DNA of 60,494 nucleotides from a bacterium (GTDB lineage: Bacteria; Patescibacteriota; Patescibacteriia; 2-01-FULL-39-33). Both the position numbers and the translations under genes were made by a program. Numbering within the stretch: the first letter of the stretch is position 1; the number at the start of each line of letters is the position of its first letter. The notes under the pieces are model-generated. The model was not told the DNA's origin. It did no database searches and saw only the letters and a list, made by a program, of their open reading frames with translations. Positions 49,349-51,854 of the stretch are shown piece after piece. The stretch is from contig JAKQDP010000038.1 of assembly GCA_029558735.1 (NCBI GenBank), positions 1-60,494 on the forward strand. The letters are read 5' to 3'.

Positions 49349-50508
49349 TGGCAGGTACCCCTTTTTTAAGACAAAGTTTCTACATTTCTGTTAATAAACT
49401 TTTATATTTCATATTGCCCGGCGAAAGCATTAGGCGCCATATTAAGCGAAGTGTGAATTCGCTCTTGATTGTAGTAATAGATTTGTTGATAAATTAAGAC
49501 CATCAGTTCCCCTAGTAATTGAAGGCGACCAGGATCACCTAATTCAACCTTAAATTGAGAACAGAATGATTCTTGGTAGCCATTCTCTCAAGGGCAACCT
49601 TTACCGGCCATGGAGGGAGTAATACCAACCTGTTTGAGTAGATTTTGATAATCTCGGGAGCAATACTCTCTACCATGATCGGAGTGAATAATTTCAAGAC
49701 GACCGTAATGAGCCAAAGCCGATAGTAGGGAGGTAATAACTAGATGTCGATCATGATTTTTGGAAATAGCCAGACCAACAATACGTCTAGTGAATAGATC
49801 AATAATGGTGGCTACATACAACCAAGCTCCATCAAACCAAAGAATAGGTAAAGTCTGAAGCCCAGATGTGATTAGGGTAGCTTGGAGTATTGGTAAGTGG
49901 TAGATTAGGATGGTCTACTGCTCCCACGGCTTTGTTTGGCTGTTTTCTGCCTCTTCGGCGATAGGGTTTAAGGTTGTAGAGTTTCATTACTCGAAGAACT
50001 CTCTTTTTGTTTAACTTTTAATGTCCGGCTAATCATTTGTGACCATAGGCCGGATGTTTACGGAGAGCTTCTTCGATCATGATCTTAACCTTCTCGTCTT
50101 TTTGGGGTTGTTTAGCTTGATAGTAGAGATTGGAACGGGATAGACTCAACAGACCAACCTGATTGGTTTTATTGCCCTGATACCTCATGATTAACTGTTT
50201 TTTGGGGCTCGTTTGAGTTCCATGGTAACTTCACCGAGCATTTCCTTGAGAGTCTGATTTTCTTTCTTTAAACGAGAATATTCCAATAGGCTGGGTTGAT
50301 TACTAATACCTTTAGAAAACCAAGGGTAGATAGTGCGATTACTGATTCCGTGATCAGAAGCGGCCTGACTAATACTTACTCCTTCATTTTTAATACGATT
50401 GATAATTTGTTCTTTAACTTCTTTAGAGATTTTATTTGTCTTTTTCATATGCCCCTATTTTAACTTAATTGACATAGAATGTTTGTCTTACATTTGGGGT
50501 ACCTTGCA
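49349..50508 (-). mobile_element. IS3-family insertion sequence, degenerate (1160 bp)
   Basis: TG...CA ends with 34-bp imperfect inverted repeats (26 of 34 match; 49349-49382 and 50475-50508); orfA HTH at 50191-50448; orfB from 50188 with W..DF, IIDLFTR.IVG, HSDHG and GCP*ENG.QESF, interrupted by stops. Confidence 0.9.
50191..50448 (-). CDS. IS3 transposase OrfA (HTH)
   Basis: SKEVKEQII..GVSISQAA..HGIS..TIY.W plus leucine-zipper LKKEN..LK. Confidence 0.85.
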   Translation of the reverse strand: MKKTNKISKEVKEQIINRIKNEGVSISQAASDHGISNRTIYPWFSKGISNQPSLLEYSRLKKENQTLKEMLGEVTMELKRAPKNS

Positions 50509-50738
50509 ATAGGATTTTGGAAATCTTGAAAATCACTTATGTCAAGTTTGTTTTGTACAGAGTAACTATTTAATATTAGATAGTTTATTACCTCCAATAA
50601 AGTTGTTTTTCCATTCCCATTTTCACCAATCAAAATATTTAAACCGCTTCCTTTTTCTCCATTTGGAATCGCTAAATCTTCAAAGGTTTTATCTCCGAAA
50701 CATTTGAAATTTTTTATTTGTAAAGTTTTTATAAACAT
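50509..50738 (-). pseudogene. N-terminal fragment of an ABC/AAA ATPase (OLD/AAA_15-like), truncated by IS3
   Basis: MFIKTLQIKNFKCF..GLNILIGENGNGKTTLLE; reading frame runs into the IS end at 50508. Confidence 0.82.
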
Positions 50739-50773
50739 ATTTAAAAATTCAAAATTTCCCAACCTTTGAAAGA

Positions 50774-51036
50774 TTGATCAATAGAAGAAAATTATTAAGA
50801 GACAGAGCTCTATCATATAAAGGCGGGAAATGCGAGCTTTGTGGATACGATAAATGTCAACAGGCATTAGAATTTCATCACCTAGAATTAACCAGGAAAG
50901 ACTTCGGTATTTCGGCAAAGGGATTTGCCAGATCCTGGAAAAAATCATAAAGGAATTGGATAAATGCATATTGGTTTGCGCCAACTGCCATCGGGAAATC
51001 CACAGTAAAGCCCAAACAATAAAAAAAGAGGCCTAA
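50774..51036 (+). pseudogene. HNH endonuclease with a single frameshift
   Basis: GGKCELCGYDKC..ALEFHH..KDFGIS..RSWKK continues as IIKELDKCILVCANCHREIH after a shift at the A6 run 50939-50944. Confidence 0.85.
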
Positions 51037-51053: not shown

Positions 51054-51204
51054 GCTCCGCGAACTGGATATTTATCCTTCACCGCTCCGACGGTGAAGGT
51101 CGCCTTCCAGTCAAGACGGCTTCCGCCGTCTTGCCTTCAGGCCGGCCCTCGCGGTCCGTCTCGTCAAATTACTCGCCGGACATCGCTCCGGGCTTCGAAT
51201 CCAG
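51054..51204 (-). repeat. Duplicate of the tRNA-Asn T-arm/acceptor 3' end, interrupted by a 125-nt hairpin-rich insert
   Basis: 16-bp direct repeat GCTCCGCGAACTGGAT at 51054-51069 and 51276-51291; TTCGAATCCAG at 51194-51204. Confidence 0.85.
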
Positions 51205-51239
51205 ACGCAAGCCAAGCAGTTGGCTTGCTTTCGCTTTTC

Positions 51240-51275
51240 AAATAAAAAATACGCCAAAAGGCGTATTTTTTATTT
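51240..51275 (-). terminator. tRNA terminator
   Basis: AAATAAAAAATACGCC-AAAA-GGCGTATTTTTTATTT perfect hairpin abutting the tRNA 3' end. Confidence 0.85.
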
Positions 51276-51276
51276 G

Positions 51277-51616
51277 CTCCGCGAACTGGATTCGAACCAG
51301 TAACCTACCGGTTACACTTGTCTTTAATTTTCATTAAAGTGTGGACTATATCATTACCATAACCCCTGCTTCCCGAAAAAATCGAGAATGACAGATGCCT
51401 TAGGTATCGGGCGCTTCGCCCCGATCCCGAGTACTCGGGATCGGGACTACTCCCATATGGGATAGTCTCTGCACGTTTCTCCGCCGAGGCGGAGACTTCG
51501 CTCAGGATCACCATTTTAAAGGCTTCCCTGAATTCACCCGATTTACATTCCGAGGTTTCCCCCGAAAGCTGCGTATTTGTTCACAGCCGGTTGCTCTACC
51601 ATTGAGCTATCGCGGA
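51277..51616 (-). tRNA. trnN: tRNA-Asn(GTT), intron-split (exons 51616-51583 and 51314-51277)
   Basis: Joined exons TCCGCGA TA GCTC AATGGTA GAGC A ACCGG CTGT^TAA CCGGT AGGTT ACTGG TTCGAAT CCAGT TCGCGGA G form a fully paired 72-nt cloverleaf; CCA not encoded. Confidence 0.95.
51315..51582 (-). ncRNA. Group I self-splicing intron (268 nt) within the anticodon
   Basis: 5' exon ends in U and intron ends in G; P1 GCTGT/GCAGC with U.G pair; P AATTCAGGGAA, Q ATCCTGAGC, R GCAGAGACT, S GATATAGTCC; P3 ATCGGGTG/CGCCCGAT; P9 CTTTAAT-GAAA-ATTAAAG. Confidence 0.93.
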
Positions 51617-51644
51617 ATATTGTTGAGTTGTGAAAAAGAACGTT

Positions 51645-51787
51645 GCCGGTTGCTCTTCCTGGGCAGCGCTGAATGCTCCCAGAGGTTGCATCCATCGTCG
51701 TCTCGCCTGCTCCGCCTATCGGCGGATTGGCTCACTCCTGCCCGTTGGTCGCTATCGCTACCAACCCATTGAGCTATCGCGGAATAT
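51645..51787 (-). repeat. Duplicate of the tRNA-Asn 5' half, interrupted in the D-loop by a 109-nt structured insert
   Basis: CCATTGAGCTATCGCGGAATAT at 51599-51620 and 51766-51787; GCCGGTTGCTCT at 51586-51597 and 51645-51656. Confidence 0.88.
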
Positions 51788-51825: not shown

Positions 51826-51854
51826 ATTTTAGCAAATTTTAGAGACAAAGTCAA
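51826..51854 (-). promoter_or_regulatory. Promoter of the tRNA locus
   Basis: Minus strand TTGACT-17 bp-TAAAAT with an extended -10 TG. Confidence 0.7.

Follow-up and report, generated by a model that had tools for sequence, protein, structure and literature searches.

How a bacterium reads its asparagine codons when no tRNA-Asn gene is found in its genome is the question raised by this locus. A standard ARAGORN run on the window (the whole stretch of 60,494 nucleotides analyzed here) returned no tRNA, and none of the 47 tRNAs that ARAGORN lists for the host genome is a tRNA-Asn. This genome, a Patescibacteria assembly, has 75 contigs totalling 991,184 bases, with an estimated completeness of 99.2%. 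An initial annotation, made from the letters alone, had placed a group I intron within a tRNA-Asn anticodon and had warned that annotators tend to miss such genes, which is what the ARAGORN results bear out. From the comparisons described below, we consider it very likely that the single tRNA-Asn(GUU) gene of this Parcubacteria/Buchananbacteria-like genome is split between U35 and U36 by a group I intron that is genuine and functional.

The interrupted tRNA-Asn gene

The minus strand from 51315 to 51582 is a group I intron of 268 nt that lies in the tRNA-Asn anticodon. A cmscan of the whole window gave a single gathering-level Rfam match, to RF00028 at 51322-51592 on the minus strand (95.7 bits, E 1.9e-23; gathering score, 50), with an alignment that covers model positions 1-253 of 253. 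The boundaries proposed in the initial annotation, which left the strand unstated, are exact, and the complete catalytic core that it described is borne out by this full-length match. Exons joined by script were recognized by ARAGORN as a canonical cloverleaf tRNA-Asn(GUU) of 73 nt, so the break falls between anticodon nucleotides 35 and 36 (GU^U), in agreement with the split first read from the DNA as GT^T. The 5' exon, which ends in CUGU, contains the 5' strand of the acceptor, the D arm, the 5' strand of the anticodon stem, and the loop nucleotides C-U-G34-U35, and it differs from the intronless genes of relatives at 0 to 3 positions. The 3' exon starts with UAACCGG and supplies U36, A37, A38, the 3' strand of the anticodon stem, the variable loop, the T arm, and the 3' strand of the acceptor; the discriminator is G, and CCA is unencoded. 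When introns were allowed, ARAGORN reported a tRNA-Thr(tgt) with a 268-nt intron, which we rejected as a misreading because the intron position had been set wrongly.

The paired elements of the intron are collected in Table 1 together with the other features of the locus. In P1, the exon end and the first intron G pair with the internal guide strand, placing a U.G wobble at the 5' splice site, and the last intron nucleotide is the G at 51315; both features uphold the splice junctions as first read. Between P7 and P3', the intron carries 47 nt more than the Rfam consensus, and this insertion forms the two extra hairpins that had been called P7.1/P7.2-like. An unconstrained free-energy fold recovers both of them along with P2, P3, P4, P5, P6/P6a, and P9, and none of 200 shuffled sequences was equally stable (z = -6.2). 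Read from the sequence, P10 amounts to at most 1-2 bp, and P1 takes up 1-2 pairs of the anticodon stem. With so short a P10, the exons would probably be aligned and held mainly by the anticodon stem of the tRNA itself. The open frames that overlap the intron in the window encode 69 and 50 aa (stop-free stretches reach at most 88 aa) and resemble nothing in the homologues; no homing-endonuclease ORF was found in this copy, for which the initial annotation had noted no internal ORF.

Table 1. Coordinates of the features discussed in the text (window positions unless a locus or contig is named)
Feature	Location	Strand	Basis or remark
5' exon, 34 nt	51583..51616	-	script and ARAGORN on joined exons
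3' exon, 38 nt	51277..51314	-	script and ARAGORN on joined exons
P1	51582-51587 / 51568-51573	-	6 pairs, U.G at splice site
P2	51560-51567 / 51548-51555	-	GAAA loop
P3	51535-51542 / 51406-51413	-	
P4	51526-51531 / 51502-51507	-	
P5	51521-51523 / 51510-51512	-	
P6	51499-51501 / 51473-51475	-	hairpin P6a within
P7	51463-51467 / 51344-51348	-	
P7.1	51459-51462 / 51451-51454	-	4-bp hairpin
P7.2	51435-51447 / 51418-51430	-	perfect 13-bp hairpin
P8	51356-51405	-	
P9	51333-51339 / 51322-51328	-	GAAA loop
Promoter-like site (TTGACT, 17-nt spacer, TAAAAT, TG before -10)	51826..51854	-	consensus scan, 10/12 matches
R1 unit, 139 nt	51645..51783	-	sequence reading; covariance model, 87.9 bits
Terminator-like hairpin (7-bp stem, UUUU loop, then U tract)	51241..51266	-	read from sequence
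Second partial-copy unit, downstream of the tRNA-Asn terminator	51055..51212	-	pattern search, sequence, fold z = -3.9
HNH-like ORF, intact	L005:1180-1530	+	P1 loop
HNH-like ORF, intact	L008:1735-2055	-	P1 loop
HNH-like ORF, frameshifted	L010:1810-2106	-	P1 loop
R1 copy beyond the window (G000)	C6:41594-41686		
R1 copy beyond the window (G000)	C29:84203-84303		
R1 copy beyond the window (G000)	C6:23274-23355		
R1 copy beyond the window (G000)	C55:15178-15274		
R1 copy beyond the window (G000)	C29:15693-15793		
R1 copy beyond the window (G000)	C55:14164-14257		
R1 copy beyond the window (G000)	C29:24217-24311		

Probable splicing and the supply of tRNA-Asn

Whether this is the only tRNA-Asn gene, a point raised with the first reading, was addressed across the 991-kb host genome: ARAGORN found no other among its 47 tRNAs, and BLAST found no second copy of the pre-tRNA. 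A lowered ARAGORN threshold produced an 'Asn(att)' at C6:61988-62068, which was discarded because Rfam gives no tRNA match there at E<=1 and open frames enclose it. tRNA-Trp is likewise undetected among the 47 tRNAs, tmRNA is not listed, and no group I match in the genome accounts for the missing tRNA-Trp. With the assembly in 75 contigs and tRNA-Trp undetected as well, the absence of a second tRNA-Asn is no proof that none exists. A further RF00028 match, AT-rich and below gathering at 30.3 bits, lies inside the 23S rRNA gene (L002:1501-1793, which is G000 C55:3200-3492, plus strand) and looks like a second, group I intron-like insert in this host.

Since asparagine codons are unreadable without tRNA-Asn, and since the exons and the core are under purifying selection, the intron must be removed. 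By far the likeliest route, given the elements that can be read from the sequence, would be the ordinary two-step guanosine-initiated pathway. Transcription would start from the promoter-like site and would include the R1 unit upstream of the tRNA, and the intron would fold after transcription. The internal guide (the strand with ACGCAGC) would then base-pair with GCUGU at the end of the exon and with the first G of the intron to form P1, with the U.G pair at the splice site. An external guanosine would attack after U35, the terminal G of the intron would next enter the G-binding site in P7, and the exons, aligned mainly through the anticodon stem, would be ligated. RNase P, 3' trimming, and CCA addition would complete the tRNA. 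Contigs from two sequencing runs labelled RNA-Seq and taken as possible RNA (X18 and X20) cover 51200-51351 and 51443-51665 and contain both exon-intron boundaries in unspliced form, and they may represent either DNA or precursor RNA. The spliced joint of the host organism was not seen in the contigs of these runs, which cannot show its absence. An apparent joint from 51305 to 51592 with 18 letters between was set aside, as it comes from the intronless tRNA-Asn of another organism.

The alternative that survives best, although we think it improbable, holds that the intron is real but inefficient at splicing itself in the cell, with a maturase-like protein or chaperone as a helper and a possible control point for the supply of tRNA-Asn. 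In vitro self-splicing of small tRNA introns from bacteria, for instance Azoarcus and Anabaena, counts against such a dependence. The very short P10 and the overlap of P1 with the anticodon stem would fit it, and dependence on helper proteins in vivo has been described for many group I introns (Hausner et al. 2014, PMC3984707). Against this stand the complete core, the two GAAA tetraloops (L2 and L9), and the extra stabilizing hairpins, and the window copy encodes no intron protein of its own.

Far less credible is that the interrupted gene is a dead pseudogene, with a working tRNA-Asn in the unassembled part of the genome or supplied by a host. The assembly is in 75 contigs, tRNA-Trp was not found either, and no spliced reads were seen, all of which would be compatible with a dead gene. 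However, each exon differs at only 0 to 4 positions from the intact genes of relatives, with changes that are mostly paired across stems, and the ribozyme core has been kept through compensatory changes in 8 genomes. The completeness of 99.2% and the failure of both exon BLAST and ARAGORN to find a second copy also weigh against this reading, and we know of no tRNA import in bacteria. An assembly or binning artefact that joined an intron to two tRNA halves can be dismissed almost entirely, even for a metagenome-type assembly in 75 contigs, because a 651-nt stretch is present with half or more of the sampled words in at least 17 runs (20 rows, 13 studies), one 5-kb DNA contig, from a run that is possibly the source itself, spans the stretch without a difference, and the identical architecture is found in 7 other genomes. 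Removal of a functional intron by splicing remains our preferred reading of the locus.

Distribution, proposed mobility, and affinities of the intron

When 61 genomes, the host's own included, were searched at the DNA level with the pre-tRNA, 40 gave matches, and 30 loci (L003-L032, from relatives and the own genome) were fetched and searched for the exons with a cut-off of 8 mismatches. Both exons are present in 26 of the 30 loci, one exon only in 3 (at contig ends), and none in 1. Eight of the 26, own genome included, carry an insert exactly between CUGU and UAACC with G as its last nucleotide; these inserts measure 234, 251, 268, 272, 408, 548, 555, and 577 nt. The gene is uninterrupted at the remaining 18 loci, with the identical junction. 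Genera g13, g14, and g15 each contain intron-bearing and intronless genes, as expected for the gain and loss of a mobile element.

The eight homologues were aligned after ORF insertions and one hairpin insert had been trimmed by script. Double compensatory changes occur at several positions of P2, two each of P3 and P4, one each of P6 and P8, and three of P9. No pairs are broken in P1, P3, P4, P6, or P8; P2, P5, and P7.1 each have a single unpaired cell, and P9 has three, all at its outermost pair. P1 with its U.G pair and both strands of P7 are invariant in all eight. The two hairpins between P7 and P3' are likewise present in every homologue: P7.1 pairing is kept in 7 of 8, and P7.2 covaries, with a sequence that differs in every genome and a pairing that is always kept. 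Because P7.2 pairs despite this change of sequence, the extra hairpins are a conserved trait of the lineage. In two of the relatives' introns (L009 of G001 and L007 of G017), the same G-rich/C-rich hairpin repeat is inserted in the P2 and P5 loops, and it looks like a small palindromic repeat that may be colonizing the intron.

Beyond close relatives, the phylum was scanned in 401 genomes with a 15-nt pattern that covers the end of the intron and the start of the 3' exon and that matched 7 genomes, against 4 for a reversed control pattern. A tRNA-Asn-like 3' half follows all six matches outside the own genome; a 5' exon ending in CUGU precedes four of these, 195, 255, 280, or 568 nt upstream, and an RF00028 match above gathering (57-76 bits) lies directly upstream in three. 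For L065 and L066, which have a tRNA-Asn-like 3' exon, a regular-expression search of 1300 nt gave no 5' exon, and RF00028 did not match. One distant homologue, L064, follows the same P1 logic in flanks checked by eye. The 35/36 site of tRNA-Asn is occupied in other Patescibacteria classes too. A 44-nt pattern of the lineage's 3' end was found in 6 records among 185,579 species genomes; by their titles, these are one Parcubacteria group MAG, two Candidatus Buchananbacteria MAGs, and three 'uncultured Gammaproteobacteria', the last of which we infer to be mislabels. A host from the candidate phyla radiation fits these titles, as well as the genome size of about 1 Mb and the intron in the 23S rRNA gene.

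The three longest homologous introns contain an open frame in the P1 loop, intact in two of them (116 and 106 aa). Pfam gave weak HNH matches to these ORFs (PF21368, E 1.6e-3; PF01844, E 1.1e-3), both below the cut-offs. In tblastn, the HNH-like ORFs matched 550 phage records, led by HNH endonucleases annotated in Bacillus and Bacteroides phages (E 5e-31 to 1e-29, 51-57% identity). The P3-P6 part of the window intron itself has weak blastn matches to interrupted phage genes, the beta22 thymidylate synthase gene among them (E 3e-6 to 0.3), which offer no more than a lead. We propose that an HNH endonuclease, with its gene in the P1 loop, lets the lineage home into position 35/36 of tRNA-Asn, and that the window copy would have lost this ORF and would persist through continued splicing. 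The window copy is thus best described as an apparent ORF-less derivative of a mobile, HNH-bearing lineage, and the full, decaying, ORF-less, and intronless alleles, as read from these genomes, make up what appears to be a complete homing-cycle series.

Extra helices P7.1 and P7.2 between P7 and P3' are typical of subgroup IA, reportedly by the definition that Michel and Westhof gave in 1990, and IC3 is the subgroup of the classical bacterial tRNA introns. The IA feature is present here. Together with the phage-like HNH ORFs and the weak matches to interrupted phage genes, P7.1/P7.2 points to phage-type IA rather than IC3 as the putative subgroup of the window intron.

Recombinase genes also border tRNA genes in this group of genomes. 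A large serine recombinase gene with Resolvase and Recombinase domains abuts the 3' end of tRNA-Asn in one relative (L008:34-1527, plus strand), another of the same domain composition abuts the 3' end of tRNA-Asp in the own genome (L076:1684-3093, minus strand), and a similar C-terminal ORF fragment overlaps the 3' end of tRNA-Asn in a further relative (L005:1738-2148, minus strand). These neighbors suggest that integrated elements may occur at tRNA-Asn and tRNA-Asp genes.

Group I introns in Patescibacteria tRNA genes are reportedly the subject of a 2025 preprint by Nakagawa et al., which may already list the tRNA-Asn 35/36 case. That preprint aside, our literature search returned no paper naming a group I intron in a bacterial tRNA-Asn; matches for 'tRNA-Asn' or 'tRNAAsn' were mitochondrial, plastid, or unrelated papers. 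The caution of the initial annotation about recent reports of tRNA introns in Patescibacteria is justified by Lui et al. (2021, PMC8172020), according to whom some tRNAs of the candidate phyla radiation (CPR) carry group I introns and are hidden by them from detection; the available portion of that paper gives no tRNA identity or position. Both reports concern the same phylum and the same kind of element as ours. This kind of element is therefore already known in the phylum, and the tRNA-Asn locus is an added, well-supported example. Genes for fMet and Ile2 have also been described as hidden by group I introns (tRNAscan-SE 2.0, PMC8450103). Bacterial group I introns lie mainly in tRNA and rRNA genes and include subgroups IA1-3, IB4, IC1, IC3, and ID, and the phage introns known by 2014 were all in protein-coding genes and not in tRNA genes (Hausner et al. 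2014, PMC3984707), whereas the present intron occupies a tRNA gene.

Several known systems share features with the window intron. The Bacillus phage introns with HNH endonucleases (SPO1, Bastille, and beta22) have P7.1/P7.2 and the weak P3-P6 match in common with it and the HNH match in common with its relatives. A bacterial 34/35 anticodon intron of another tRNA is likewise a small group I intron inside the anticodon, and its exons are aligned by the anticodon stem, as proposed here; this alignment is said to have been described by Zaug et al. in 1993. That intron belongs to subgroup IC3 and, unlike the one in the window, has no P7.1/P7.2. It also has no endonuclease ORF and is largely vertically inherited, whereas the window lineage appears mobile and has HNH relatives. 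The cyanobacterial tRNA-fMet intron, which has its own endonuclease, is sporadic among close relatives, as is the window lineage, but it resides in a different tRNA and uses a different endonuclease family in place of the HNH-like ORF in the P1 loop seen here. The introns of Azoarcus tRNA-Ile(CAU) and Agrobacterium tRNA-Arg(CCU) are inserted 3' of the anticodon, whereas the window intron lies within it, and we know of no endonuclease-bearing relatives of either. At about 200 nt, both lack the P7.1/P7.2 hairpins. Both belong to IC3, and their host genes are also missed by annotators (PMC8450103).

Neighborhood of the gene and the R1 element

On the minus strand, genes for a primase, sigma-70, and a protein of the 23S-rRNA-intervening-sequence family are followed by the promoter-like site, the 139-nt R1 unit, a 28-nt spacer, and the interrupted tRNA-Asn gene; next come a terminator-like hairpin and a second partial-copy unit with a terminator-like hairpin of its own. 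The promoter-like site probably drives the whole unit, R1 first and then tRNA-Asn. The hairpin directly behind the tRNA gene is not listed on the minus strand by the consensus scan. The second unit consists of a T-stem-like 5' strand, a structured insert of about 130 nt, and a duplicate of the final 16 nt of tRNA-Asn at 51055-51070 with one mismatch. BLAST found no relation between this insert and R1, and the unit occurs as a single copy in the genome.

The R1 unit is built from a copy of tRNA-Asn nucleotides 1-18 (51766-51783), a hairpin, a three-way-junction core (51654-51747), and a copy of nucleotides 22-32 (51645-51655), such that the insert replaces the D-loop of a partial tRNA-Asn copy and the fold closes on the D stem. 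A covariance model of the core, which spans about 95 nt, was built from 13 copies. It identifies 8 copies in the 1-Mb host genome, all beside tRNA genes and on the same strand as these. Copies upstream of the genes for tRNA-Asp, Asn, Gly, and Lys have the core enclosed by a truncated 5' version of the respective tRNA, whereas in those downstream of tRNA genes for Gln (two) and Leu (two) the core occupies the T-loop of a truncated 3' version and the trailer is duplicated. Depending on the copy, R1 interrupts the truncated tRNA at its D-loop, its variable/T region, or its T-loop. In a sample of the class, R1 occurs in 38 of 151 genomes, with at most 9 copies in each. For 30 of 39 copies examined, an ARAGORN tRNA lies within 350 nt, in all 30 cases on the same strand and mostly 55-67 nt away. 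R1 also precedes intronless tRNA-Asn genes and is therefore independent of the intron.

An alignment of 41 R1 matches, fitted to the model and so favoring the structure, pairs in 95.6% of cells, and 19 of 21 pairs change on both sides. The covariation score in this model-fitted alignment is 0.565, whereas shuffles give 0.17 and slid partners no more than 0.08. R1 has no Rfam match at E<=5 and no blastn match in phage records; two exact matches of an 18-nt R1 pattern in viral contigs were rejected, since they fail the model and have no tRNA nearby. Pfam searches of 36 open frames near R1 revealed no partner that recurs (apart from one reverse transcriptase and one serine recombinase, these are housekeeping genes), and a literature search on integrative elements returned nothing specific for R1. 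The arrangement, in which a tRNA segment and its flank are repeated with the element in one copy, fits insertion of a small circle by recombination, although this is a guess, and we would only conjecture that tRNA processing sets the RNA free as a by-product. A reverse-transcriptase gene (RVT_1, E 6e-21; L106:104-1270, plus strand) lies 231 nt upstream of an R1 copy at 1501-1602 on the same strand in one genome of the class; as a single case, this may be a coincidence.

A broader reading, which we regard as possible though doubtful, is that an uncatalogued IA-like, HNH-mobilized lineage at tRNA-Asn 35/36 occurs in several Patescibacteria classes and has become fixed here in the sole tRNA-Asn gene, that this gene is cotranscribed with and flanked by truncated tRNA-Asn copies with structured elbow-loop inserts, and that R1 is a new tRNA-specific, multicopy RNA or mobile-element family. 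If this were true, all asparagine decoding in the host would depend on ribozyme activity. The interrupted gene by itself accounts for an essential tRNA that seems to be missing from a reduced genome, and it shows that tRNA counts from annotation pipelines are too low in CPR bacteria. The short classical list of bacterial tRNA introns gains tRNA-Asn, position 35/36, and an intron with phage-like features (P7.1/P7.2 and HNH). The full, decaying, ORF-less, and intronless forms within one bacterial family also offer a compact natural series of the homing cycle. R1, if confirmed as new, may outweigh the intron in importance, with 8 copies in 1 Mb, all beside tRNA genes, and strong covariation.

Farther downstream of the tRNA locus, the region at 50000-51000 is low in GC (32-37%) and contains short open frames that match the HTH domain of an IS3-type transposase and the N terminus of an AAA ATPase. 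This stretch probably represents mobile DNA that has decayed.
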